From contig OZ241883.1 in NCBI GenBank assembly GCA_965203445.1, forward strand, positions 1,856,001 to 1,920,000: DNA of 64,000 bases, in the 5' to 3' direction. Made by a program: the position numbers and the translations under genes. The notes below the pieces were generated by a model, which did no database searches, was not told where the DNA came from, and saw only the letters and a list, made by a program, of their open reading frames with translations. Origin of the DNA: Candidatus Oxydemutator sp. Its GTDB lineage: Bacteria > Pseudomonadota > Gammaproteobacteria > Poriferisulfidales > Oxydemutatoraceae. Positions 4,387-17,382 of the stretch are shown here, piece by piece; positions within the stretch are counted from its first letter, which is position 1, and every line of letters starts with the position of its first letter.

Positions 4387-5583
4387 ATGAAAAACAACCT
4401 GGAAGAATTGTTGCGCGGCACCGCCGAAGTGCTGCTGCCGGAGGAACTTGAAAAGCGCTTGGCCGCGGGCAGACCGCTGGTGGTCAAGGCCGGTTTCGAT
4501 CCGACGGCGCCCGACCTGCACCTGGGACATACGGTGTTGATCAACAAGTTGCGGCAGTTTCAGCGGCAGGGGCACGCGGTCAAGTTCGTGATCGGCGATT
4601 TTACCGGCATGATCGGCGACCCGAGCGGGCGCGACAAAATGCGCCCGCCGCTGACCAGGGAGCAGGTCGAGGAAAACGCCGCGACCTACGCCGGGCAGAT
4701 CTACCGGATACTCGACGAGGACGCGACCGACGTCTGCTTCAACTCGAAATGGCTGGCGGCGCTGTCGGCGGAAGACATCGTGGCGCTGGCCGCGCGCCAC
4801 ACCGTCGCGCGCATGTTGGAACGCGACGATTTCCAGAAACGCTACAGCGGCGGACGGGCGATCGGCATCCACGAGTTTCTGTACCCGTTGCTACAGGGCT
4901 ACGACTCGGTCGCTTTGCGCGCCGACGTCGAGTTGGGCGGCGTCGATCAGAAGTTCAACCTGCTGGTCGGCAGGGAATTGCAGAAAGACTACGGCCAGCC
5001 GCCGCAGGTTGTGATGACGATGCCGTTGCTCGAGGGGCTGGACGGCGTGCGCAAGATGTCGAAGTCGCTGGACAACCACGTCGCGGTCGCGGCGTCGCCG
5101 GCGGAGACGTTCGGTCGGCTGATGTCGGTGTCGGACGAGTTGATGTGGCGCTATTTCGAGTTGCTGAGCCTGCGCCCGGGCGCGGACGTCGCGCTGCTCA
5201 GGCAGGCGGTCGCGGACGGACGCAACCCGCGCGACGTCAAGTTCGAGTTGGCCGGGGAGATCGTCGCGCGTTTTCACGACGCGCGCGCCGCGGCCGCCGC
5301 GCGCGACGATTTCATCGCGCGTTTTCAGGAGCGCGCGACGCCGGACGACCTCGAGACGCGCGAGGTGACGATTGCCGAAGCGCGGGTGCCGTTGGCGGTG
5401 TTGCTGCGCATGTCGTCGCTGACCGCGTCGTCATCCGAGGCGCGGCGCATGATTCGGCAGGGCGCGGTGCGCGTGGACGGCGAGAAGATCGAGGACGCCG
5501 ATCTTGAGGTCGAGGCCGGCAGCGAGCGCGTGTACCAGGTGGGGCGCCGCCGCTTTCAGCGTATCCGCGTAATCAGGTCCTGA
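4387..5583 (+). CDS. tyrS: Tyrosine--tRNA ligase
   Basis: [13 protein letters not shown] (HIGH), KMSKS, C-terminal S4 domain; ATG at 4387. Confidence 0.97.
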
Positions 5584-6188
5584 CCGCGCAGCTCGCGGTG
5601 GATCGTGAGATCGCGGTGCAGCCGCTCGATCCGGCGCCGCAATTCTTCCAGGTCGCCGTTGTTGTCCAGCACCACGTGCGCGGCTTGCAGCCTCTCGTCG
5701 CGTCCGGCCTGGGTCGCAAAGATTTTGCGCACCGCGGCCTCGTCGCAGCCGTCGCGCTCGATGATGCGCGTCGTCCGCGTGCGCTCGTCGCAATCCATGA
5801 CGACGACGACGTCCACCAGGTCGTCCATGCCGGCCTCCAACAGCAGCGGCGCACTGATGACGCAGTATGCGTGGTCGGCGTCGAGCGCCGCGGTGCGCCG
5901 CTCGATCTCGCGCCGCACCGCGGGATGCAAAATCGCGTTCAGCCGCCGTCGCGCGTCGGTGTCGTCGAAGATCAGGCGGCGCAATCGCGCGCGCTCCAGG
6001 CGCCCGTCCTGGTCGAGCATTTCGTCGCCGAACGCGGCGCTGATCTTCTCGAGGTGCGGGGCGCCCGGGCGCGTCAATTCGCGCGCGATTTCGTCGGCGT
6101 CGAGCAGCGGCGCGCCGTGTGCGCGAAACATCGCGCCGGCCTCGCTCTTGCCGCAGCCGACGCCGCCGCTCAGGCCGACGCGGATCAC
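5556..6188 (-). CDS. coaE: Dephospho-CoA kinase
   Basis: GTG at 6188 overlaps pilD stop (GTGA); [13 protein letters not shown]-loop, [12 protein letters not shown]. Confidence 0.93.
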
Positions 6189-7030
6189 TGTAGGCTCCCG
6201 TTTGCGAGCAGCAGCCGCAGCGGGTTTTTGAAGGCGTCGGCGGACAGCAGGCACAGCCAGCCGGCGAGCGCCAGATGTGGGCCGAACGGAATCCGGGTTG
6301 CGCGCCGCCACTTGCCGGCGGCGATCATCGAAAGGCTTGCCGCGAGACCGCTGAGCGAAGCCAGCAGCACGATGCCGGGCAGCACCTGCCAGCCGAACCA
6401 GGCGCCGAGCGCGGCCAACAACTTGACGTCGCCTCCGCCCAGTCCCTGCCGTTTTCTGAGTGCCGCGTACGAGCGCTCGAGAACGAAGAAGGAGAGGTAG
6501 CCGGCGATCGCACCCATGATCGCCGACTGCGCGTCGGCAAACGTCGCCAGGCCGTTGACGGCGAGACCGAACCACAGCAGCGGCAGCGTGATTGCGTCGG
6601 GTAGCAGGCCGTCGCGCAGGTCTATCGCCGCCAGCGTCGTCAGACACGCGGCGAGTACGACGCCGGCTGAAAACTGCGGCCACGCGTCGTGGGCGAGCGC
6701 GACGCCGACGCAAGCCAGCGCCGTCGTCAGTTCGACTATCGGGTAACGCGGGCTGATCGGCGTCCGGCAGTGTGCGCACCGACCCTTCAAAAGCAGATAG
6801 CCCAGCAACGGCACGTTGTGGCGCCATGCGATCGGTTGCCGGCAGGCGGGGCAGTGCGACGCCGGCGTCGCCAGCGACAGATGGTCGTAGCCGTCGTCGC
6901 CCGGTTCGTCGTCCGGCTCGCGCTGCGACGGCATCAGCGGCAGACGGTAGATGACGACGTTCAAGAAACTGCCGAGTATCAGCCCGCCGCCAAAAACGGC
7001 GGCCAGCCATGGCCAGGAGGAGTCGAGCAT
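6185..7030 (-). CDS. pilD: Prepilin peptidase / N-methyltransferase
   Basis: GSFLNVVIYRLP, two CxxC motifs, GLGGGDVKL, IPFGPHL. Confidence 0.95.
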   Translation of the reverse strand: MLDSSWPWLAAVFGGGLILGSFLNVVIYRLPLMPSQREPDDEPGDDGYDHLSLATPASHCPACRQPIAWRHNVPLLGYLLLKGRCAHCRTPISPRYPIVELTTALACVGVALAHDAWPQFSAGVVLAACLTTLAAIDLRDGLLPDAITLPLLWFGLAVNGLATFADAQSAIMGAIAGYLSFFVLERSYAALRKRQGLGGGDVKLLAALGAWFGWQVLPGIVLLASLSGLAASLSMIAAGKWRRATRIPFGPHLALAGWLCLLSADAFKNPLRLLLANGSLQ

Positions 7031-7035
7031 ACCGG

Positions 7036-7041
7036 ATTATA
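7036..7041 (-). promoter_or_regulatory. -10 box 5 nt upstream of pilD ATG (leaderless candidate)
   Basis: TATAAT on minus strand, ATG at 7030, no SD. Confidence 0.5.
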
Positions 7042-7276
7042 GGGCAACCGCTGTTCGTGTTCACCGATGCACCGGCAAAAGGTCGTCGGTTTGTCAGGCG
7101 TTTCTTTCTCGAGCGCCCGCTGCGCCCGGAACGTCGCAGTAAATCAGATGAGTGTTATCCCTCGTGGTATGCCTCCAAAATACAGGTTTCAGGGAAACCC
7201 CGTTCCGGCGGCGCATCAGTGAACCTTTACGGGAATGACGGACTCAAGGGGGCGGCGGGGCAGGTGGGGGGTCGCA

Positions 7277-7305
7277 TTGATTAAAGTTCGGCTATGCCAT
7301 ATGCT
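7277..7305 (+). promoter_or_regulatory. Sigma70-type promoter of the motor/vWA operon
   Basis: TTGATT(7277-7282)-17 nt-TATGCT(7300-7305), then 6 nt to ATG 7312. Confidence 0.55.
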
Positions 7306-7311
7306 AATCGG

Positions 7312-7983
7312 ATGAGATTGTCTTCCTTTCCGGCGGTTCGGGCGGTGTTCGCGGCCGTTTGTCTGGTCGGGCTTTGTCGGGGTTCGGCGGCACTGGCCGA
7401 AGCGGAGGACACCAGCGCCTCGAGCTACGACGACTGCACCCGAATCGAGCTGGATTTGGAGGCGGCAGCCGGGGCGCTCACCGACGAGGAGAAAATTGCG
7501 CTGATGGATAGGGAGTTTTATGAATCTTTGGCGCGCTTTGACCGTTGCCAGGCTTCGTTCTCGTCCGATGACGGCGGCGGTAGCGATGGCGGCGGTAGCG
7601 ATGGCGGTGGTAGCGATGGCGGCGGTAGCGACGGTGGTCAGGGCGGCGGAGTACAATCGGTGCCGTCCGCGTCCGTTTCCGGAACCGACCCGGAAAAAGC
7701 CTCGGAAGAGGAACCGAAAGAGGGCCGCGAACCGGGGACGCCCGCAGTGCAGCCGGCGACCGCGGAGCACTCGTCCACGCCGCGGGACAACGGCAAGACA
7801 CCCGACGACATTCCTCCCGCCAACAACGACGACATAATCGCGCGGGGGCTGCGCGAGGTCGCGGAAAATGAAAAGAATCCCGAGGAAAGAGAGAAGCTAT
7901 GGAACGAGTACCGCAAATACAAAAACCTGCCCGTCAAGGAGGCGCCCTCGGAAGAGCGGCCCGCACCAAAGCAGTCCCGATGA
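7312..7983 (+). CDS. Secreted hypothetical protein with (DGGGS)4 linker and a charged C-terminal helical motif
   Basis: Signal peptide, Cys pair, Gly-Ser repeat, acidic/Pro linker, C-terminal DIPPANNDDIIARGLRE..EKLWNEYRKYK; alternative ATG at 7294. Confidence 0.75.
   Translation: MRLSSFPAVRAVFAAVCLVGLCRGSAALAEAEDTSASSYDDCTRIELDLEAAAGALTDEEKIALMDREFYESLARFDRCQASFSSDDGGGSDGGGSDGGGSDGGGSDGGQGGGVQSVPSASVSGTDPEKASEEEPKEGREPGTPAVQPATAEHSSTPRDNGKTPDDIPPANNDDIIARGLREVAENEKNPEEREKLWNEYRKYKNLPVKEAPSEERPAPKQSR
7570..7629 (+). repeat. 15-bp tandem repeat x4 (gayggcggyggtagc) encoding DGGGS
   Basis: Units start at 7570, 7585, 7600, 7615, with a partial fifth unit. Confidence 0.9.
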
Positions 7984-9209
7984 GATACCGGTTGTCGCGG
8001 GCGGCGTTGGTGCCGTTGACGTTGCTGCTTTCGGCGTGCGTCACCACCGGAAGTTTCCCTGGTTTCGGCGCGGGCCAAGGCGCCGCGGTCGGCCCCGGCA
8101 GCATCGAAGACGATGCCGTCTCCGCCACCGCCGGCTTGCCGGCGAACACTCCTAGACTGGACGTCGTCATTCCGGTTTTCGACCCCGGTTTGCCGCAAGA
8201 TCCCGACGATTACGCGGACAGCGGCGTGTGGCCGGAGCTGCGCCGTGCCGAGGCCAACCGCTTCGCGTTGAAGATGAAGGAGGCGCTCGAGAAAACCGAG
8301 GCCTTCGGCGCGGTGCGTGTGACCCCCGACAAGACCGCGGTCGGAGACCTGTACATATTAGGCGCCATCGAGGAATCCAACGGCGAGGACGTTGAGATCC
8401 GTATCGAAGCGGTGGCCATGTCCGGCAGGCGCTGGCACGCCGAGACTTATGAGCATCGCGTCAAGGAGGCGTTCTACCAGGACCCGCGCAGCAAGGGCGA
8501 AGACCCGTACGCGCCGGTGTTCGCCGAGGCCGCCGCCGACGTCGTGTCGAAGTTGCGCAAGAAGTCCGGCGACGAGCTGGCGCGGTTGCAGGCCGTAACC
8601 GAGATGCGTTTTGCCGCGTCTCTGTCGCCGGGCGCGTTCGGCGAGCATCTCAAGCAAAGAGGCGACACGTTCACGCTGGCCAGCCTGCCGGCGGAGGCGG
8701 ATCCGATGCTTGCCAGGACGCGCGCCTTGCGCGTGCGCGACCAGTTGTTCGTCGACCGTTTGCAGAAACATTACGAGGACTTCGACACGCGCATGGACGA
8801 GAGCTATTCGGTTTGGCAGAAGGAAAGTTTTCAGGAGGTGAAGGCGGCGCGCGCGGCTTCCAGAAAGGCGTGGTTGGAGGGGCTGGCAGGCGCGGTGATC
8901 GTCGGTCTTAGCGTGGCGGCCGCGGTCAGCAGCGACAACCCCAATACCGGGGACGTGGCCCAAGTCGGCGCCGTCGCCGGTGGGCTCCTGATAGCAAAGA
9001 GTTTCCAGACGCGGGAGGAGATGAAGATCCACCGCGAGGCCCTGGCCGAGCTGGGCGAGTCCATCCATACCGAGCTTGCGCCGGCGGTGTTGGAGTTCGA
9101 GAACAAGACGGTTACGCTTACCGGCAACGTCGAGGAACAGTTCGCCCAATGGCGGACTTATCTGAGGCGCATATACGAGCAGGAGGCGACGCCGGAAGTT
9201 CGTATGTAA
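7980..9209 (+). CDS. Hypothetical lipoprotein with glycine-zipper-like segment
   Basis: ATG at 7980 overlaps upstream stop (ATGA); lipobox LLLSAC; hydrophobic LAGAVIVGLSVAAAV / VGAVAGGLLI region. Confidence 0.8.
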   Translation: MRYRLSRAALVPLTLLLSACVTTGSFPGFGAGQGAAVGPGSIEDDAVSATAGLPANTPRLDVVIPVFDPGLPQDPDDYADSGVWPELRRAEANRFALKMKEALEKTEAFGAVRVTPDKTAVGDLYILGAIEESNGEDVEIRIEAVAMSGRRWHAETYEHRVKEAFYQDPRSKGEDPYAPVFAEAAADVVSKLRKKSGDELARLQAVTEMRFAASLSPGAFGEHLKQRGDTFTLASLPAEADPMLARTRALRVRDQLFVDRLQKHYEDFDTRMDESYSVWQKESFQEVKAARAASRKAWLEGLAGAVIVGLSVAAAVSSDNPNTGDVAQVGAVAGGLLIAKSFQTREEMKIHREALAELGESIHTELAPAVLEFENKTVTLTGNVEEQFAQWRTYLRRIYEQEATPEVRM

Positions 9210-9217
9210 GGCCGGCG

Positions 9218-10741
9218 ATGGGAAGCCCCGTTGCAGAAAAAGTCGCGGCCGCGGCGGCCGCGAGCGCCACTAGAAAAAAGATCGTCGGGTTCCTGGCGGC
9301 CGTTGTTTTTGTCGTCGTCGCGGTCGTCGCCGCGGCCTACTTTATCTGGTCGCCGCCCGAGACCCGCGTTGCGACGCCCGCGCACGTCGTCGGCGGCGCG
9401 GACACGGGCGCCGGCGAGGGTGCGGGCGCCGGCGGGGGTGTGGGCGCCGGCGGGGGTGCGGGCGCCGACGGGGGTGCGAGCGCCGGCGGAGTCGGCGCCG
9501 ACGAAGATGCCGACGCGCTGAGGCGGGAGTTCAAAAGGCTGCTCAAATCGTTTCAGTCGGAGCTGGAGCCGGCCTTGCGGCGGGTATCCGTCGCCGCGTG
9601 GGACGCCGCCGCCCACGACGATATATTTTCGCGCAAAGAAAAAGCGTTGCGCGCCTTTGGCGCGGGCAATTATTCGTCCGCCGTCCACCTGCTGCAAGGC
9701 GCCTCGGAGGTCGCCGCCGAGATCCTGCGCTTGGCCGAGCGGAGTTTTCGTTCGAGCATCGAGGCCGCGGCACGCGCCCTGCATGCGAACGACGTCGCCG
9801 TCGCGCGCGCGAGCATAGCGCGGGCGTTGTTGATAAAGCCGGACGCGGCGGAGGCTTTGGCCCTGCGGGCGCGCATAGCGGTTCTGCCCGAAGTATTGCG
9901 GCTGCTGGAAGCGGCCGATGCGGCGCGTATCGAGAACGATGACGCGCTGCATCGGGCGCGGCTTCAGGAAATCGTGCGCCTGGACGCGGCGCGCGAGGAC
10001 CTCAAGGAGCGGCTGCGCGTATTGTCCGAGAGGATGATCGAGCGCGAGTTCACGGGCTACGTCGCCGCCGGCGTGGACGCCGTCGCCAAACGCGACCTGG
10101 CGGCCGCGACGCGGTCTTTGCGGCGCGCGCAGGAGATCCATCCGGCGCGCGAGGAAGTCGCGTTGTTGGAGCGCGACGTGCGGCGACTTGCGCGCCGGGT
10201 CGCGCTCCAAGAGCATCTGCGCGCGGCCGCCGCGGCCGTGGCCGACGACGACTGGGCGCGGGCGCATCGGCGTTTCCGCGAAGCGGTCGCGGTCGACGCC
10301 ACCGCGGACGCGGTCGACGGCGAGAAACTTGCCGCGCGCGTCATCGCCGCGCACGAGGAGATCGCCTCCTATCTGGCGCGCCCGCGCCGGCTGTCCTCGC
10401 CAAACGTCGCGGCCGTGGCCGAGACCGCGCTGCGCGCGACCCGCGATCTGCATCGGGCAAGCCCGTCGCTGGCGCGCCAAGCCGGTATGCTTGAACGGTT
10501 GGTCGCCGATTACGCCACGCCGGTGCCGGTGCTCGTGCGCTCCGACAACCGCACCGAAATCCTCGTGCGCGGCGTCGGCAGAATCGGCAAGATCGGCGAG
10601 AAAGTCGTCGACCTGAGGCCGGGCGCCTACACTTTCGAGGGCAAGCGCCAGGGCTACAGGTCGAAGCTGATCCGCATCGAGGTGGCGCCTCGCCAGCGGC
10701 CGCCGGAAGTGACGCTGATTTGCGATGAGCGCCTGCGATGA
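9218..10741 (+). CDS. Single-TM protein with Gly-Ala repeat, long helical (TPR-like) body and C-terminal PEGA-like beta domain
   Basis: TM IVGFLAAVVFVVVAVVAAAYFIW; Ala/Arg-rich helices; C-terminal VDLRPGAYTFEGKRQGYR. Confidence 0.75.
   Translation: MGSPVAEKVAAAAAASATRKKIVGFLAAVVFVVVAVVAAAYFIWSPPETRVATPAHVVGGADTGAGEGAGAGGGVGAGGGAGADGGASAGGVGADEDADALRREFKRLLKSFQSELEPALRRVSVAAWDAAAHDDIFSRKEKALRAFGAGNYSSAVHLLQGASEVAAEILRLAERSFRSSIEAAARALHANDVAVARASIARALLIKPDAAEALALRARIAVLPEVLRLLEAADAARIENDDALHRARLQEIVRLDAAREDLKERLRVLSERMIEREFTGYVAAGVDAVAKRDLAAATRSLRRAQEIHPAREEVALLERDVRRLARRVALQEHLRAAAAAVADDDWARAHRRFREAVAVDATADAVDGEKLAARVIAAHEEIASYLARPRRLSSPNVAAVAETALRATRDLHRASPSLARQAGMLERLVADYATPVPVLVRSDNRTEILVRGVGRIGKIGEKVVDLRPGAYTFEGKRQGYRSKLIRIEVAPRQRPPEVTLICDERLR
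9407..9493 (+). repeat. 18-bp tandem repeat x4.5 (ggcgccggcgggggtgyg) encoding GAGxGA
   Basis: Units start at 9407, 9425, 9443, 9461, 9479. Confidence 0.85.
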
Positions 10742-12762
10742 ACACATTTGACGCGCGCTTGCGCTCGGCGCGCGCGCGCCAGCGTCGCGTGTTTGCGTTC
10801 GTCGTTCTCGGCGCGGTCGCGGCCGTGGTTCTGGTGGTGGCGTTCTGGGCTTCGACCCAGGGCGTATCGCTGATCGTAACACCGCGCGCGGCCGCCGATA
10901 CACTCGAGTTGCGAACCCTGCAGGGGTTCGGGTTCACCGCCGCGACCAGCGTCTACGCCTTCGGCGACGTGGTTGTCGAGGCGCGGGCACCGGGCTTTGT
11001 CACCGAGCGGATCGCGGTCGCATCGGGCAAGCAGAGCACGTTTCTTGAGGTCGCGATGCGCGAGGCGCCGGCATCGTTGCAGGTAACGACCGTGCCTGAG
11101 GCCGACGACACCGGTTGGTTTTTGAACGGCGCGCCGGTCGCGACGTCGCGCAGCCTGTCGTTGGAGACCGCGGCCGGCACGCATACCATAGTCATTAACC
11201 ATCTTTATTATCAGAAAGCCGCGCTTGAGGTTTTCGTCGGTCGCGGCCAACGCTTTCGCCGGGAAGTGCGGTTGGCGCCGTTGCGCGGCGAGATCCGAAT
11301 CCGCACGACGCCGCCGGGTGCAATGGTCTCGATGGACGGTGCGATCCGCGGCGCCGCTCCCGGCGTCTATCCGACGGCCGGCGGGCGCCGCACCGTTCGC
11401 GTCACCCATCCGGGTTATGAGGAGGTGCGCGACACCATAAATATCACCAACGCGGCCGCCGTCGTCGTAAGAAACTACCGGTTGCGGCCGCAGGGCGCGT
11501 TCGTGCGTTTTCGGTTGCACCCGCCGGGCGGGCGGCTGACGTTGGACGGCAAGCGCGTGGACGCCGCCGGGCGCGTGCGGGTGGACTCGATGCGCGAACA
11601 CGTGGCGTCTTATTTCAAGCCGGGCTGGCTGGCGCAAACCGAGACCTTCACGCTGCCGCCGTCGGGCGAGCGCGAAGTGCATCTTTCGCTGCGCGAGGAA
11701 ATCGGCGTCGTCGAGGTCGTGTCGAGACCGCCGGCCACGGTGTCGGTCAACGGCGAGAGCGCCGGCGTCACGCCGCTGACCCTGCGCTTGCGCGCCGTCA
11801 TGCACGAGATCACCGTCGCCAGAGAGGGCTACCGCAGTGTTACGCGCAAGTTGACCCCCGCCTCCGGCGCCGCCAGGAAGGTGGACGTGACGCTCGTCGA
11901 GGAGGCGTCGGCGAGATTGGCGGAAAGTCCCGCCGTGTACAAGAACAGCATCGGCATGACGCTGCGTTTATTCCGGCGCCCGGGAGTCTTCGAGATGGGG
12001 GCGCCGCGTCATGAACGAGGCCAGCGCGCCAACGAGTTCCGAAGAAAGGTGCGGCTTGAAAAGGCGTTTTACGCGGCGACGCACGAGACGACCGCGGCGC
12101 AATACGCACGATACAAGGGCGGCGGCGGCGCGCCGTCGGGGTCGCCGGGCGTGCCCGCGACCGGCGTCACGTGGCTTCAGGCGGCGGCTTTTTGCAACTG
12201 GTTGAGCGCCCGGGAGGGACTGCGGCCTTTTTATCGGTTGCAGCACGGCCGTTATCTCGGCGCCGACGTGCGCGCCGACGGCTACCGTCTGCTCACCGAG
12301 GCCGAGTGGGAATGGCTCGCGCGCAAGGCCGGGCGCGCACGCCAGACCCGCTTTACCTGGGGCGACGCCGACGCGGTGCCGGCGGCGGCGGGCAATCTGG
12401 CGGATCGCTCGGCCAAGGGGAAGCTCCAGTCCTACATTCCAAACTATAGCGACGGCTACGACGGCCTCGCGCCGGTGGCGAGCTTCGCCGCCGATCGGTC
12501 GGGACTGTACGACCTGTCGGGGAACGTCAGCGAGTGGGTACACGACGTATATTCGTTGGCACCGCCCGCGCCCGGCGTCGAAGTGGATCCGGTCGGCCGC
12601 GCCGTCGGCCAGGCCCACGTGTTCAAGGGCTCCAACTGGCGTTCCGCCACGATTACCGAGTTGCGGGCGTCTTTTCGGGAGACCGCCGCCGCCGGACGCG
12701 ACGATTTGGGTTTTCGTGTGGCAAGATATTTGTACGGAGGAGAAAACACCGATGATCAATAA
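10738..12762 (+). CDS. TM + multiple PEGA domains + FGE/SUMF1-fold domain protein
   Basis: PEGA repeats (TTPPGAMVSMDG, SRPPATVSVNGESAGVTPL); FGE-fold motifs FEMG, YRLLTEAEWEWLAR, GLYDLSGNVSEW, LGFRVAR; ATGA overlap with upstream gene. Confidence 0.88.
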   Translation: MNTFDARLRSARARQRRVFAFVVLGAVAAVVLVVAFWASTQGVSLIVTPRAAADTLELRTLQGFGFTAATSVYAFGDVVVEARAPGFVTERIAVASGKQSTFLEVAMREAPASLQVTTVPEADDTGWFLNGAPVATSRSLSLETAAGTHTIVINHLYYQKAALEVFVGRGQRFRREVRLAPLRGEIRIRTTPPGAMVSMDGAIRGAAPGVYPTAGGRRTVRVTHPGYEEVRDTINITNAAAVVVRNYRLRPQGAFVRFRLHPPGGRLTLDGKRVDAAGRVRVDSMREHVASYFKPGWLAQTETFTLPPSGEREVHLSLREEIGVVEVVSRPPATVSVNGESAGVTPLTLRLRAVMHEITVAREGYRSVTRKLTPASGAARKVDVTLVEEASARLAESPAVYKNSIGMTLRLFRRPGVFEMGAPRHERGQRANEFRRKVRLEKAFYAATHETTAAQYARYKGGGGAPSGSPGVPATGVTWLQAAAFCNWLSAREGLRPFYRLQHGRYLGADVRADGYRLLTEAEWEWLARKAGRARQTRFTWGDADAVPAAAGNLADRSAKGKLQSYIPNYSDGYDGLAPVASFAADRSGLYDLSGNVSEWVHDVYSLAPPAPGVEVDPVGRAVGQAHVFKGSNWRSATITELRASFRETAAAGRDDLGFRVARYLYGGENTDDQ

Positions 12763-12892
12763 CGGGATTTTTTACGCGGCGTTGGCGCTCATCGTGATCG
12801 TCGCGCTGGCTTATCTGGCGGGGGACATTGCCGCCCGCGGCGCGCCGACGGTGGGCTTGAACTCGCCGACCACGTTTCCGGTGGACATCTGA
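12752..12892 (+). CDS. 46-aa single-TM microprotein (MINNGIFYAALALIVIVALAYLAGDIAARGAPTVGLNSPTTFPVDI)
   Basis: Translated by hand; GGAGG at 12736-12740; fills the gap between the flanking genes (11-nt overlap upstream, 1-nt gap downstream). Confidence 0.65.
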   Translation: MINNGIFYAALALIVIVALAYLAGDIAARGAPTVGLNSPTTFPVDI

Positions 12893-12893
12893 C

Positions 12894-13661
12894 GTGCGCC
12901 TGGATCACCGCGGCATCTGGGTCAACGTGCTGATCCTGATCGCCGTGTTCGTCGTCGTGCATCTTGTGTACCTCGGGCTGATTCGCCCGCAGGCCGAGTT
13001 GGCGCTGGAAGCCGCGCGCCAGGCCGGACAGTCGGCGCCCCGGGATCTGTTCGTGATTTTGAAGGACCTGGAGCAGGAGATCTGCATCGTGCTGATGATT
13101 TACGGTCTCTATCTGATGTCGGTCAAGTACGCGAGCCTGGTGTCGCGGCGTTATCTGTTCACGGTGGATCTGCTGCAAGACGCCGGCGCCGACGAAGGTA
13201 GCCTGGGCAACGTGCTCGAGGAACTGGAGAAGCTGCCGCGACACGTCGGCGAGACGCCGCTGGTCGAGACCCTGAAGGCCAGCTTGCGGCGCTACCTGAT
13301 AACCCGCGACGTGCAGAATACCTCGGACGCGATCAGCGCCAGCGTCGAGGCGCAGGGGGTGCGTCTCGAGGCCGAAAATTCGACCATCCGCTACCTGATC
13401 TGGGCGATCCCCTCGATTGGTTTCATCGGCACCGTGCGCGGCATCGGACAGGCGTTGTCGCAGGCCGAGAAGGCCCTGGCCGGGGACATTGCGACGATGA
13501 CCGACAGCCTGGGCGTGGCCTTCAATTCGACCCTCGTGGCGCTGCTGATCAGCATTTTCCTGATGTTCTTCCTGCACCAGTTGCAACGCGCCCAGGACGG
13601 CTTGCTGGTCGAGACCCAGGCCTACTGCGAGAAGTTTCTGCTCAATCGCATCAGCAGCTAG
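12894..13661 (+). CDS. MotA/TolQ/ExbB proton channel family protein
   Basis: WAIPSIGFIGTVRGIGQAL and SLGVAFNSTLVAL TM hairpin with the conserved Pro/Gly/Thr residues. Confidence 0.9.
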   Translation: MRLDHRGIWVNVLILIAVFVVVHLVYLGLIRPQAELALEAARQAGQSAPRDLFVILKDLEQEICIVLMIYGLYLMSVKYASLVSRRYLFTVDLLQDAGADEGSLGNVLEELEKLPRHVGETPLVETLKASLRRYLITRDVQNTSDAISASVEAQGVRLEAENSTIRYLIWAIPSIGFIGTVRGIGQALSQAEKALAGDIATMTDSLGVAFNSTLVALLISIFLMFFLHQLQRAQDGLLVETQAYCEKFLLNRISS

Positions 13662-13669
13662 GTGCGGTC

Positions 13670-14731
13670 GTGCGCAGACGCCGAAAAACCGAGGGCTTCA
13701 ACCTCGCCTTTTTGGACATCATGTCCTGCGGCCTGGGTGCGGTCATACTTATTTTTCTGATAGTCAAGCACAACGTGGACAAGGGTTCGGTCGAGGCCGA
13801 CGTCACGTTGTCGGAACTGGCAGCGATGGAGCAACGGGAGCGGCAACTGCAAAAGGAGGTCGAGACCGCGAGGCGGGACAACGCCGAGGAGCGTAGGCGC
13901 GGCGCCGAACTGGCGAAAAAACTGCATGCGATACGCGCCGCGACGGCCGCGCTCGAGCGCCAGGCGGCGGCGCAGCAGCGCAGCAACGAGCACCTGCAAG
14001 ACGCGGTCGACGAGGCCGCGGCGCGGCGCGCCGCCGACGTGGTGGCGGATGAGGACGCGGGCGAAGAGGAGTATCTGATAGGGCTTGCGGTCGAGGGCGA
14101 GCGCGTCGCAATTTTGCTCGACCGCAGCGCCTCGATGACCGACGAGAAACTGGTGGACGTCATCGTGCGCAAGACGCGCGACGCCGCGCGCAAGCGCGCC
14201 GGCCCGAAGTGGCGCCGCGCCCAAAAGACCGTGCGTTGGTTGCTGAACCGCCTGCCGCGCCAAAGCCGCGTGTCGCTGATCGCGTTCAACGACAAGGCCG
14301 AGGTTTTCGGCGACGCCACGTGGAACGACGCCCGTGACGCGACCGCCGTCGGCTCGCTGTTCGCCGACGTCGCCAAACTGACGCCCACCGGCGCGACCAA
14401 CCTGCAAGCCGGGCTCGAGCGCTTGCGCAAGCTGCGCCCGCGCGCGACCGACGTTTATCTGATAACCGACGGCTTGCCGACCGAGGCCGTATCCAAACCC
14501 TCGCGCCTCGGCAAGTGCGGTTCCTTGTTCGGCAAGAGCAACAACGTCTCCGGCGCCTGCCGCGAGCTGCTGTTCCAGGAAACCCTGCGCGAGTCGGCGC
14601 CGAACGGCGGCGAGGAAGTCAACGTGATCTTGTTTCCATTGGAGGGGGATCCGGCGGCGGCCACCCATTTCTGGAAATGGGCCGCCGCCACTGGCGGTAT
14701 GGTGATGACGCCCGCGGCGGGGTGGCCGTGA
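13670..14731 (+). CDS. ExbD/MotB-like TM anchor + coiled coil + vWA domain protein 1
   Basis: FNLAFLDIMSCGLGAVILIFLI TM with Asp; MIDAS DRSAS..GATN..ITDG. Confidence 0.85.
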   Translation: MRRRRKTEGFNLAFLDIMSCGLGAVILIFLIVKHNVDKGSVEADVTLSELAAMEQRERQLQKEVETARRDNAEERRRGAELAKKLHAIRAATAALERQAAAQQRSNEHLQDAVDEAAARRAADVVADEDAGEEEYLIGLAVEGERVAILLDRSASMTDEKLVDVIVRKTRDAARKRAGPKWRRAQKTVRWLLNRLPRQSRVSLIAFNDKAEVFGDATWNDARDATAVGSLFADVAKLTPTGATNLQAGLERLRKLRPRATDVYLITDGLPTEAVSKPSRLGKCGSLFGKSNNVSGACRELLFQETLRESAPNGGEEVNVILFPLEGDPAAATHFWKWAAATGGMVMTPAAGWP

Positions 14732-14741
14732 GGGGGCGGTC

Positions 14742-15683
14742 GTGAAGCGGCGCGAAAGGAGCGGCGATATTTTCAGCATGTCGCTGTTGGACGTCGTCTC
14801 GTGCGGTTTCGGCGCGATGATCCTGTTGTTGCTGATAACCAAATCGGGTTTCACCGAAGCCGACGTCAACGTTGACCTGAGCGCGTTGCTTGACCGCACT
14901 TTTCAAACCGAGGACAGTATTCGAAGGTTGTCCGAGGAACTCGACGGGTTGCGACGCGAACTTGCCGAGAACCGGCGCGCCAACCAGGACGCGCTCGCTA
15001 GGCAAGACGCGCGACGACGCGAACTCGAACGCAAACGAGCCGCGGGCGCAAGCCTCAGGCGCGAAGGCCAGGGTCTGGAGAACGTGCGGCGCACTTTGCA
15101 GCGCGCCTCGATCTCGCGCGCCACCACCGACGAACGCGATACCGAGGTCGGCGGCATACCGGTGGACAGCGACCACGTCATTTTCATCATAGATACCTCG
15201 GGCAGCATGCAAAGCATCTGGGACAAGGTCACGCGGACGATAGAGAATATCCTGGACGTCCATCCCCAGGTGCGCGGCTTTCAGATACTCAACGACAACG
15301 GTTTCTATCTGGTCGGCGGCTACCGCGGAAAATGGATAGCGGACACGCCGAAAAGAAGGAAAAGCATACTGAACGCGGTGCGTTCCTGGGGCGCGCTCTC
15401 GAACAGCAGCCCGGTCGAGGGCCTCGAGGTCGCACTCAAGACGTATGCCGGCAAGCGCGACAAAATATCCATCTACATATTCGGCGACGACTTCGCCGGT
15501 TCGTCCTACGATACGGTCATTCGCACCATAGAGAAGCTGAACACCGACAAGATCAGCGGTGCGCCGATTGTCCGGGTTCACGCGGTCGGCTTTTCCTCGG
15601 GCGGCGTCCCCGAGCGCTTCGGCATCCTGATGCGCGAGGTAACCGGAAAAAACAACGGCGTGTTCCTGGCGTTGCCGCCGTGA
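14742..15683 (+). CDS. ExbD/MotB-like TM anchor + coiled coil + vWA domain protein 2
   Basis: FSMSLLDVVSCGFGAMILLLLI TM with Asp; MIDAS DTSGS..FGDD; VRVHAVGF. Confidence 0.85.
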   Translation: MKRRERSGDIFSMSLLDVVSCGFGAMILLLLITKSGFTEADVNVDLSALLDRTFQTEDSIRRLSEELDGLRRELAENRRANQDALARQDARRRELERKRAAGASLRREGQGLENVRRTLQRASISRATTDERDTEVGGIPVDSDHVIFIIDTSGSMQSIWDKVTRTIENILDVHPQVRGFQILNDNGFYLVGGYRGKWIADTPKRRKSILNAVRSWGALSNSSPVEGLEVALKTYAGKRDKISIYIFGDDFAGSSYDTVIRTIEKLNTDKISGAPIVRVHAVGFSSGGVPERFGILMREVTGKNNGVFLALPP

Positions 15684-15711: not shown

Positions 15712-16905
15712 TTACAGCGCGAAGCCGAGATTGAATATCGGCAGGTACATCGTCGCCACGATCCAGCCGACGGTGCCGGCTATCAGCAGAATCAGCAGGG
15801 GTTCGGTCAGCTGGATCACGCGCTCGGATGTAGCGGCGATGCGCTCGTCGTAGAACTCGGCGATCTGGCGCAGCGCCTCGTCGAGGCGTCCGCTGTTTTC
15901 GCCGATGCGTATCACGCGCCGAAAGAAACGGTCGAAAAAGCCGGCGCTGCGTACCGCCTCGGAGAATCCCGCGCCTTCCTCCAGGCGTGCCGAGACGCGC
16001 TCCAGCGCCTTGCTGAAAACCGGATCGGAGGTCGCGTCGCCCAGCCACTCGACGGCGGTGGCGAGGGGCACGCCGGCGTCGTAGGCCGGCGCGACGACGG
16101 TTGCGAAGAGGCGGCACAGATACGCTTTTTTCAAGGTTCCCGCGAACGGCAGCCACAACGTCGCGTACGCCAGCGCGTAGCGAAACCAGCGCGCGTTGCG
16201 ACGTAGCAACGCGAGACCCGCGCACAGCAGGGCGAGCAGCGCGCCGGCGTCGGCGCCGTGTTCGGAAAGAAGCGAGAACAAGCGCAGGGTCAGCTTCGTC
16301 GAGGCCGGCAGCTCGCCGCCGAAATCGGCGTAGAACGATTCGAATTGCGGCATCATTGTAAGCAGCAGCAGCGCCACGACGGCGCCCGACGCGACCAGCA
16401 CCGTGACCGGGTAGGTCGCGGCCCGTTTCAGCTTCTTATGGATCTTTTCATGTTTTTCCCGTTGCGACGCCAGTTCGAGTGCCAGTTCCGCGAGGCGCCC
16501 GCTGTCCTCGCCGGCTTGCAGGATGCGGAAGACGTAGCGGTGGCGCGGGTGCAGGTACGGTGCGATACTCCGCGCAAGGCCGCCGCCGGCCTCGACGTCC
16601 TGCCAGATCAGCGTCAGCGTCCGTTGCAGGCGCGGTTGCGCCTGGCGGCGCAGCAGGTCGAAGACGTCGCCCACGGGCAGCGTCGCGCGCAACAACGTCG
16701 CAAGTTGCCGCAACAGCGCCGTGACGTCGCGCCCGCCGAGGCGCCGCACGCGCCCGCCGGCTGAGATTTTTATCGGGATAACGTCTTGCGTTGCAAGGAA
16801 TTGCCTGAGTTCGTCCTTGTCGCGCGCGGCGCGCACTCCGCTTATGATCTCGCCCGAGGGCACGAGACCGCGCCACCGGAAGCATTTTTTGGCGTCCTCG
16901 GCCAA
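15712..16905 (-). CDS. pilC: Type IV pilus platform protein (T2SS-F family)
   Basis: LLRQLATLL, AGEDSGRL, ATYP, IGENSGRLDEAL, EPLLI, MYLPIF; TTG start. Confidence 0.9.
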   Translation of the reverse strand: MAEDAKKCFRWRGLVPSGEIISGVRAARDKDELRQFLATQDVIPIKISAGGRVRRLGGRDVTALLRQLATLLRATLPVGDVFDLLRRQAQPRLQRTLTLIWQDVEAGGGLARSIAPYLHPRHRYVFRILQAGEDSGRLAELALELASQREKHEKIHKKLKRAATYPVTVLVASGAVVALLLLTMMPQFESFYADFGGELPASTKLTLRLFSLLSEHGADAGALLALLCAGLALLRRNARWFRYALAYATLWLPFAGTLKKAYLCRLFATVVAPAYDAGVPLATAVEWLGDATSDPVFSKALERVSARLEEGAGFSEAVRSAGFFDRFFRRVIRIGENSGRLDEALRQIAEFYDERIAATSERVIQLTEPLLILLIAGTVGWIVATMYLPIFNLGFAL

Positions 16906-16908
16906 GGT

Positions 16909-17382
16909 TCAACGGCATTGCGCCGGCAGGTATTTCGAGTCGAGACGCTTGTCCTTGTCGTCGTCCGTGCCGCACTCCCATTTGAGAACGTCGGTGGCCG
17001 GGGCCGCTTTCAGCAGCAGCACCTTGCCGCCGGCCTCGCCGCCGATGGCCTGGTCGAGGGTGATCTTGAGGTTGCCGGCCGCGGCCGTTTTCTTTTGTTT
17101 GTTCGCCGCGATCCTTTCGTATTCGATGCCGGACACGTAGTCGCTGGTCACACTCGTGTCTATGCCGGCCTTGTCGGCGGTCTCCGGCAGCTGCCCCTCG
17201 CTGACGTAATATTCGCCGATCATGATTTTTATCGAGCTCGCCAGGTTCAGGGCCTCGGCGATTTTGGCGCGCACGGTATAATCCTGGTACGCCGGCAGCG
17301 CCAGCGACAGCAGGATGCCGACGATGGCGATGGCGATCATCAGCTCGATCAACGTGAAGCCCTTGAGACCGTTGTTTTTCAT
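16909..17382 (-). CDS. pilA: Type IVa major pilin
   Basis: Class III signal KG|FTLIELMI, ALPAYQDY, C-terminal Cys pair; GGAGG SD upstream. Confidence 0.93.
   Translation of the reverse strand: MKNNGLKGFTLIELMIAIAIVGILLSLALPAYQDYTVRAKIAEALNLASSIKIMIGEYYVSEGQLPETADKAGIDTSVTSDYVSGIEYERIAANKQKKTAAAGNLKITLDQAIGGEAGGKVLLLKAAPATDVLKWECGTDDDKDKRLDSKYLPAQCR

Follow-up and report, generated by a model that had tools for sequence, protein, structure and literature searches.

Gene organization of the operon

The window analysed here is a stretch of 64,000 nucleotides from Candidatus Oxydemutator sp. (GenBank assembly GCA_965203445.1, contig OZ241883.1, positions 1,856,001 to 1,920,000 of the forward strand), and the host genome measures 2.38 Mb in one contig. 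Positions 7294-15683 of the window are filled by eight tightly packed open reading frames (ORFs) of the + strand, all co-oriented, which are called g1 to g8 below. Their distal part, g6-g7-g8, most likely encodes a TolQ-like envelope motor of the 5:2 type, as judged from domain content and conserved residues, and the small peptide g5 encoded in front of it is predicted to dock on one of the heads of this motor. The genes were mapped as follows:

7294 (alternative Met 7312) to 7983, + strand: g1, secreted protein, 229 aa (223 aa from 7312)
7980-9209, + strand: g2, lipoprotein, 409 aa
9218-10741, + strand: g3, membrane-anchored TPR protein
10738-12762, + strand: g4, anchored PEGA/FGE-like protein
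12752-12892, + strand: g5, 46-aa peptide
12894-13661, + strand: g6, TolQ/ExbB-like channel subunit, presumed pentamer
13670-14731, + strand: g7 (vWA1), protein with an Asp-bearing transmembrane (TM) helix, a coiled coil and a vWA head
14742-15683, + strand: g8 (vWA2), TM-Asp/coiled-coil/vWA paralogue of g7

The longest ORF of g3 starts from 9149, and the consensus N-terminus of its orthologues matches the Met at 9218. Neighboring genes are joined by ATGA overlaps (g1/g2 and g3/g4), by an 11-nt overlap (g4/g5), or by gaps of 8 nt (g2/g3, from Met 9218), 1 nt (g5/g6), 8 nt (g6/g7) and 10 nt (g7/g8). This ORF map, with the junctions read from the sequence, bears out the eight co-oriented, packed genes described in the first-pass annotation. 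The same annotation placed them behind one promoter, which was not borne out: when the + strand upstream of g1 was examined with a simple promoter scan, no sigma-70-like site emerged. Since the scan gave no such site, co-transcription is suggested by the gene spacing alone.

The probable motor core

The g6 protein was assigned to Pfam family MotA_ExbB (PF01618; E 6e-14, 52.3 bits against a cut-off of 22.9). Its AlphaFold2 (AF2) model reached a predicted local distance difference test (pLDDT) score of 88.8, and the top folds returned by Foldseek were ExbB (5sv0) and TolQ (8vlw_B), with target-normalized TM-scores (TMt) of up to 0.68; MotA ranked lower. In a comparison of the g6 family profile with PDB sequences, no solved ExbB, TolQ or MotA was retrieved at E<=0.01. 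The pore helices, encoded at about 13380-13574, are nearly invariant, and T180 and T213 were invariant in 30/30 sequences. These two residues are the presumed counterparts of the TolQ/ExbB threonines.

The g7 protein was matched by Pfam VWA_2 (4.6e-11). Its N-terminal helix bears an Asp (D16, at 13715-13717) within an AFLD motif that is kept wherever the N-terminus was captured, and its head holds a complete metal ion-dependent adhesion site (MIDAS) consisting of DxSxS (14120-14134), T243 and D267. Residues D151, S153, S155, T243 and D267 were invariant in 80/80 sequences. For g8, the VWA_2 match was sub-threshold only (E 0.0079), and comparison of the two proteins by hhalign (probability 99.6%, E 4.7e-24, 268 columns) identified g8 as a paralogue of g7 over its full length. 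The corresponding elements of g8 are D17 (14790-14792) and a DxSxS at 15192-15206; L16, D17, D151-S155 (DxSxS) and D249 were invariant (32/32), and a Ser-rich loop replaces the MIDAS Thr. In both proteins, a basic stretch precedes an (A/S)FLD motif that opens the single helix, and approximately 100 residues of predicted helix or coiled coil lie between this helix and the vWA head. Neither anchor contains a His or an SHLS motif in its sequence. Among PDB sequences, the g7 profile found no relative at E<=0.01 and the g8 profile found nothing at the threshold used.

A Pfam scan of g7 and g8 gave no ExbD or OmpA match, and across the genome the ExbD model hit two places only, both outside the operon. 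Family scans detected neither an ATPase domain (MoxR partner) in the operon nor TonB or TonB-dependent receptor domains in the eight proteins. The family scans thus agree with the earlier statement that ExbD/TolR/MotB, TonB, TolA/TolB/Pal, OmpA and Zorya effectors are missing from the operon. The proposed combination of a MotA/TolQ/ExbB channel with two single-TM, Asp-bearing vWA proteins was likewise borne out by the domain calls, the paralogy and the Asp motifs.

Conservation and distribution of the cassette

Similarity to g6 (57-89% identity) was used to retrieve 80 loci, which by their record labels span Gamma-, Alpha- and Zetaproteobacteria, Binatia, Nitrospirales and one spirochaete metagenome-assembled genome (MAG). 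The cassette is carried by many bacteria, mostly marine, with the same gene order; the culturable, non-pathogenic Aestuariispira insulae CECT 8488 and Mariprofundus sp. EBB-1 are among the carriers. Loci were taken as evaluable when they reached at least 6.7 kb upstream and at least 2.15 kb downstream of g6 (57/80), and g1, g2, g3, g4, g6, g7 and g8 were found in identical order in 56 of these 57. The sole exception, L076, holds g5-g8 only, with a 1677-aa TPR protein nearby. The g1 gene stood upstream in 59/60 loci evaluable for it. The order of g2-g4 and g6-g8 was also kept in distant gammaproteobacterial genomes with 42-47% identity in g6 (3/3). A second, gammaproteobacterial set was made up of 20 of the 37 matching genomes of the class sample described below, with long contigs chosen and G435 omitted; here g2-g4 accompany the core in 18/20 loci, the exceptions being L123, which lacks g2-g4, and L133, which is cut by a contig end. 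No flanking gene family recurred in more than 9/80 loci. This gene arrangement is far beyond chance, and, as far as sequence comparison can tell, the eight genes are one conserved unit. The co-occurrence across genomes that the earlier description presupposed was therefore found in the evaluable, the distant and the second-set loci.

The distribution of the cassette was then determined in genome samples. It was present in 19/400 other genomes of a phylum sample, 16 of the 19 belonging to one family, and when that family was sampled separately, 3/61 genomes were positive. In the class sample, 37/399 other genomes (~9%) were positive, G435 included, and one further genome was not scorable. Among 1.84 billion entries, the g8 profile matched 318 cluster representatives at E<=1e-30, with 964 at E<=1e-10 and 3004 at E<=1e-3.

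Several variants were observed. At L123, g6-g8 are present and no g1-g5 lie within the 12 kb retrieved; at L132, a g6-like gene is located downstream of g8. The g7/g8-like matches at G571:C493:323-1307 hold stop codons (1 TAG and 2 TAA in one, 2 TGA and 2 TAA in the other), and this copy may be decaying. In a distant subfamily, an extra gene of ~410-450 aa lies between g6 and vWA1 (L112 9246-10589, - strand; L113 9136-10368, - strand), with no signal peptide and no significant Pfam match. Gaps of ~1.3 kb between g6 and g7 were also seen in L120, L122 and L124-L129.

The small peptide g5 and its predicted complex with the g7 head

The g5 peptide ends in a nearly invariant tail, LNSPxxFPVDI-COOH, encoded at 12854-12889. 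An ORF ending in FP[VGI]DI-stop lies immediately upstream of g6 in 78/80 loci, and in the remaining 2/80 the g5 motif is followed by 7 and 17 extra residues, which brings the tail ORF to 80/80. L-11, F-5, P-4, D-2 and I-1 were invariant in all extracted tails (77/77). In the second set, a tail ORF was present in 19/20 loci and missing at L123; of the 19, 16 matched the first pattern, 2 needed a looser pattern and 1 ends in -NI. The N-terminal half of the family consists of a basic plus a hydrophobic segment, and g5 is predicted from its sequence to be exported or membrane-anchored. In the -NI variants of L111 (10762-10869) and L131 (8520-8636), which end in -NI for -DI, an extra Asp stands at -6.

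The hypothesis modeled was that the g5 tail is an acidic ligand of a vWA metal site. The complex prediction contained the g7 head (130-353), the g8 head (125-313), two Mg and residues 17-46 of g5, with a 32-row alignment for each protein. The g5-g7 pair obtained interaction prediction scores from aligned errors (ipSAE) of 0.88, 0.88 and 0.89, versus 0.02 for the best of 3 controls. The ipSAE mark is passed by 116/157 solved complexes and by 2/215 mismatched pairs, rates that apply only roughly here because custom alignments were used and Mg rode along. Contact agreement in the g5-g7 runs was at least 78%, with a partner pLDDT of 59-61. Replacement of the g7 head by an unrelated protein dropped the score to 0.00, which places the predicted site of the g5 tail on g7, not on g8.

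The confident contacts in the model involve residues 35-37 and 39-46 of g5, and on g7 residues 153-155 (SxS of the metal site), 241-243 (Thr loop), 271-272, 285, 290-296, 298 and 325-329. The last two residues of g5, D45 and I46, are predicted to rest on g7 residues 153-155 and 242. The contacted g7 residues were invariant or nearly so in 80/80 sequences. Also at the interface is residue 168 of g7, which is K or R in each of the 21 rows whose tail ends in -DI. Only 2 rows, L111 and L131 from different families, have an -NI tail, and there the basic side chain has given way to M or Q. As g7 has no sequence relative in PDB at E<=0.01, memorization of a like complex could have produced a pass only through the general mode of vWA-ligand contact. 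The invariant g7 surface, the lack of a PDB relative and the covariation at residue 168 fit the g5-g7 prediction, and the model supports binding of the g5 tail to the MIDAS of the g7 head.

Integrin-type vWA/MIDAS domains recognize an acidic residue in a short ligand motif. The modeled contact, in which g5 presents its Asp-Ile-COOH end to the DxSxS/Thr/Asp metal site of g7, resembles this recognition. In contrast to the integrin type, the ligand would be a dedicated peptide of 15-20 residues encoded beside the motor, and g7 is without a sequence relative in PDB.

Accessory proteins g1-g4

Scans with Pfam, NCBIfam and PADLOC models placed neither g1 nor g2 in a family. The g1 protein is composed of a signal peptide, a helical N-terminal part with two Cys, a low-complexity linker rich in Gly, Ser and Asp, and a conserved C-terminal motif at residues ~166-180 (G-K-x-P-E/D-D-I-P-P, then N-D). 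The P-E/D-D-I-P-P part of this motif resembles the P-V-D-I end of g5. From its sequence, the g1 motif might be a ligand of the second vWA head, that of g8, for which g2 is another candidate ligand.

The lipobox Cys20 of g2 was invariant in 28/28 aligned sequences. The AF2 model of g2 (pLDDT 75.8) displays an N-terminal alpha/beta domain and, after it, a long hairpin of helices; model confidence is low at the hydrophobic, Gly-rich tip of the hairpin. Foldseek matches at E 1.6e-4 to 1e-2 comprised the LPHT ring, DUF330, PelC, FlgT, LptE, chain A of 4r40 (TolB/Pal complex) and CsgG. These matches are weak, of low query coverage and with a query-normalized TM-score (TMq) of ~0.2, and suggest, at weak to moderate strength, that the modeled N-terminal domain resembles outer-membrane lipoproteins and ring parts. 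No relative of g2 was found among PDB sequences at the threshold used, and a protein-atlas search returned solely its own unnamed lipoprotein family.

The g3 protein starts with an N-terminal membrane anchor and continues through a Gly-rich linker and TPR repeats into a small C-terminal beta domain. Against PDB, its profile retrieved designed and natural TPR proteins (1.4e-9 to 1e-3). Pfam TPR (TPR_2) was found in 14/32 orthologues and PEGA in 0/32, and the g3 of the window itself matched no significant Pfam family. Comparison of the C-terminal beta domain with the PEGA repeats of g4 by hhalign was weak (best E 5.8e-4, probability 29%).

The g4 protein matched Pfam PEGA (2.2e-25) and FGE-sulfatase (6.3e-33), and its N-terminus is a membrane helix with no lipobox in its sequence. 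Its Pfam domains were placed as follows:

~10870-11922, + strand: PEGA-type beta-sandwich repeats of g4, about four to five
~11977-12726, + strand: C-terminal FGE-fold domain of g4

In an alignment of g4 with human FGE, one of the two presumed catalytic positions is occupied by Ser and the other is without Cys. Activity of g4 as a formylglycine-generating enzyme was rejected on this alignment, in which neither catalytic Cys is present. The g4 head matched PorK chains (1.4e-20), with PvdO as a comparable relative, and the GldK/PorK model matched no more than the C-terminal domain of g4, at 72.1 bits where 350 is the cut-off. Among the domain labels given in the first-pass annotation, MotA_ExbB, vWA, the PEGA and FGE domains of g4 and the lipoprotein were upheld by the domain scans and the lipobox. 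The PEGA label for g3 was not, with no orthologue carrying PEGA and only the weak hhalign similarity to the g4 repeats.

Relationship to a published class and to known motors

A gene set of this kind has been predicted in silico. In PMC12204202 (Mol Biol Evol 2025;42:msaf138), the passages on the class describe a tolQ-like gene with a heterologous TM-vWA pair and no tolR/exbD. The pair, termed 'transpore-helix' there, directly follows the tolQ-like gene and has no SHLS motif, and no motB is present in the cluster. Both helices have a conserved Asp, and AlphaFold3 (AF3) models put the Asp pair inside a Thr ring. The class is found mainly in Proteobacteria, and those passages do not give a function. 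The operon has the class features of these passages (a tolQ-like gene and an Asp-bearing vWA pair, with no SHLS and no tolR/exbD), the assignment being made by the features described rather than by sequence comparison with the Idiomarina seed of PMC12204202.

In the text of PMC12204202, the words PEGA, sulfatase and formylglycine have 0 occurrences each, whereas g4 carries PEGA and FGE domains. Its passages on the class mention no lipoprotein partner or small peptide. The strict eight-gene unit and the g5-MIDAS prediction with its controls go beyond the text of PMC12204202. Within the library searched, no literature was found on the class beyond PMC12204202, or on the g5 peptide or the accessory genes. 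The proposal that the operon represents an undescribed class does not hold for the core, which the passages of PMC12204202 had already predicted from sequence and AF3 models. The statement that no functional description exists stands, because those passages give no function. As a whole, the earlier interpretation of a real system that is distinct from Ton, Tol and Zorya and has no known function is retained from the domain scans, with its core already in print in PMC12204202.

Elsewhere in the same genome, a separate tolQ-tolR-tolB cluster and an exbB-exbB-exbD cluster are present, which makes the operon an additional motor. The operon as part of a Ton or Tol system was rejected on account of these separate clusters; with no such domains in its proteins either, it is not assignable to Ton/Tol, in line with the first reading. 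The Tol-Pal system (TolQ-TolR-TolA-TolB-Pal-CpoB) combines a motor with an anchored stalk protein, a TPR protein, a periplasmic protein and a lipoprotein. The present gene set parallels this layout by bringing together, in a single operon, a TolQ-type channel, an Asp partner helix, a long, anchored periplasmic protein, a protein with TPR repeats, a further periplasmic protein and a lipoprotein. However, the periplasmic parts are not homologous, with no TolA, TolB, Pal or OmpA domains in the Pfam scan, and the partner here is a heterodimer with vWA heads.

The PorL/PorM/PorK/PorN (GldLMKN) system, the core of type IX secretion and gliding, shares with the operon a 5:2-type motor, a long periplasmic shaft and an FGE-fold protein. 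It differs in that g6 belongs to the MotA_ExbB family and not to GldL, in that g4 is membrane-anchored and not a lipoprotein (GldK 72 bits versus 350), and in that PorM, PorN and the translocon are missing from the operon. The Zorya pair ZorAB is similar in its MotA-family channel, non-flagellar role and patchy distribution, whereas the operon is without the long ZorA tail, a ZorB-type peptidoglycan-binding domain and ZorC/D/E effectors; PADLOC defence models detected nothing in the operon beyond a weak partial ZorA match (E 4.3e-4). Unlike MoxR-vWA/Bat-type systems, the operon is without an AAA+ MoxR ATPase partner.

Proposed machine and alternative explanations

With a confidence slightly above even, we read the operon as a self-contained ion-driven envelope machine of the TolQ/ExbB type, with a conserved scaffold, g5 on the g7 head and an output directed at the lipoprotein. 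By homology, g6 would form a membrane pentamer, the pore of which would be filled not by TolR/ExbD/MotB but by one Asp helix of g7 and one of g8. As ions pass these Asp residues and the g6 Thr residues, the pentamer and the shaft would rotate relative to each other, and the g7/g8 coiled coil would carry two non-identical vWA heads into the periplasm. The exported g5 is predicted to place its Asp-Ile-COOH tail on the g7 MIDAS, where it could act as a dedicated cap, latch or tether of the g7 head. Periplasmic g1 together with g2, g3 and g4 would form an envelope-spanning scaffold or the load, as suggested by their co-conservation and domain make-up, an arrangement akin to that of Tol-Pal and of PorLMKN. 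The output would be mechanical work, dependent on membrane energy, on an outer-membrane lipoprotein assembly, that is, its tethering or remodeling. Envelope tethering or remodeling is a guess, and we prefer it to motility or secretion on the grounds that the cassette is devoid of genes for a secretin, a substrate, an adhesin or a cytoplasmic effector.

A bolder version, which we consider possible and would place well short of even, is a horizontally spreading, motor-turned shaft with two vWA heads, each having its own acidic ligand of the 'PxDI' type. The g7 head would have g5 as its ligand, and a speculative pairing is that of the g8 head with the P-E/D-D-I-P-P motif of g1. If true, a peptide-latched, integrin-like grip on a rotary motor would be a coupling principle new in comparison with Ton, Tol, Mot, Gld and Zorya.

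Several points weigh against the proposed envelope machine. The patchy distribution of the cassette suits an accessory trait better than core envelope maintenance. The uncharged or hydrophobic run of g5 (median 19 residues, range 12-27) is long for a signal peptide, and the g5 of the window itself has no basic N-region. The receptors modeled with g5 were the vWA heads only, other candidate receptors being the g3 TPR, the FGE-like groove of g4 and the pentamer. The ipSAE is a model confidence and no measurement, and the custom alignments and Mg lie outside its calibration. The covariation at g7 residue 168 occurs on two lineages only, and L033 has Q at this position despite a -DI tail. The fold matches of g2 are also as weak as given above.

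Alternatively, the roles could be swapped, with the vWA pair a stator fixed through its heads, g5 or the scaffold anchoring them much as MotB/TolR grip the wall, and the g3/g4 helices docking on the rim of a rotating pentamer like TonB/TolA. In that case, force would reach the outer membrane through the PEGA stalk and its FGE-like head, which would be the actual transducer. Both g3 and g4 follow the TolA/TonB body plan, in which one N-terminal anchor leads into a long periplasmic stretch with a globular domain at its far end. Short conserved motifs are found on the cytoplasmic side of both N-termini, both proteins are strictly co-conserved with the motor, and the head of g4 resembles PorK, a partner of the PorLM motor. 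However, the g3/g4 anchors are without His or an SHLS-type motif, their membrane helices are not conserved, and the passages of PMC12204202 on the class model the vWA proteins themselves as transducers. We regard this arrangement as unlikely. Another arrangement concerns g5 alone, which would be an uncleaved bitopic subunit. With its helix on the motor, it would keep the g7 head close to the inner membrane by means of its tail, serving as a brake or storage latch until activation released it. This would suit the length of its hydrophobic run, the ~19 residues that follow the run, the tightest attachment to g6 (stop codon at a median of 22 nt before the g6 match), the retention of g5 with the core in L076, where g1, g3 and g4 are missing, and the predicted seat of the tail on the g7 head. 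Against it, g5 of L111 and L131 has a short canonical signal peptide with an AxA site, cleavage at which would free a 15-residue peptide; distant variants are longer, acidic secreted proteins (~90 residues or more) with the same end; and an AxA-like site lies past the hydrophobic run in 71/77 sequences by a crude pattern test. We judge a bitopic g5 to be just as unlikely as swapped roles.

A non-rotary function was also considered, in which g6 is a static TolQ-like channel or scaffold and the vWA proteins are metal-dependent binding or assembly factors. The failure of the g6 profile to find a solved motor protein by sequence would agree with this, and vWA proteins are often static adaptors. 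In contrast, neither the Asp of the two partner helices nor the Thr of the two pore helices varies across phyla, and the g6 fold is closest to ExbB/TolQ. Such invariant ion-path residues are hard to account for without ion coupling, and the chance of a static function appears slim. Slimmer still is that of a Zorya-like role in conflict or defence, in which the motor, as part of a mobile accessory island, would sense disturbance of the envelope by phage. In favor of it, the cassette occurs patchily down to the level of a single family and genus, its flanking genes vary among carriers, its place in the window is between the pilus genes pilC and pilD, and there is the weak partial ZorA match. However, family scans found no cytoplasmic effector, nuclease, helicase or NTPase among the eight proteins, PADLOC gave no system match beyond the shared channel domain, and all parts are envelope proteins.

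The 5:2 ion motors drive flagella, nutrient import, envelope division, gliding and phage defence, and each newly understood one has shown a new route for energy across the periplasm. The present operon belongs to a widespread family with no known function, and a streamlined 2.4-Mb genome retains all 8.4 kb of it. With the unity of the eight genes and a predicted peptide ligand for one head, a prediction on paper becomes testable at the bench.

Genomic context

The cassette splits type IV pilus genes that usually adjoin, all of them on the opposite (-) strand. The neighboring genes are:

5556-7064, - strand: ORF whose C-terminal part is coaE
6185-7030, - strand: pilD
15712-16905, - strand: pilC
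16909-17382, - strand: pilA

The g1 gene is immediately preceded by tyrS instead in five sponge-symbiont loci. Such a context would agree with a mobile cassette having been inserted or rearranged.

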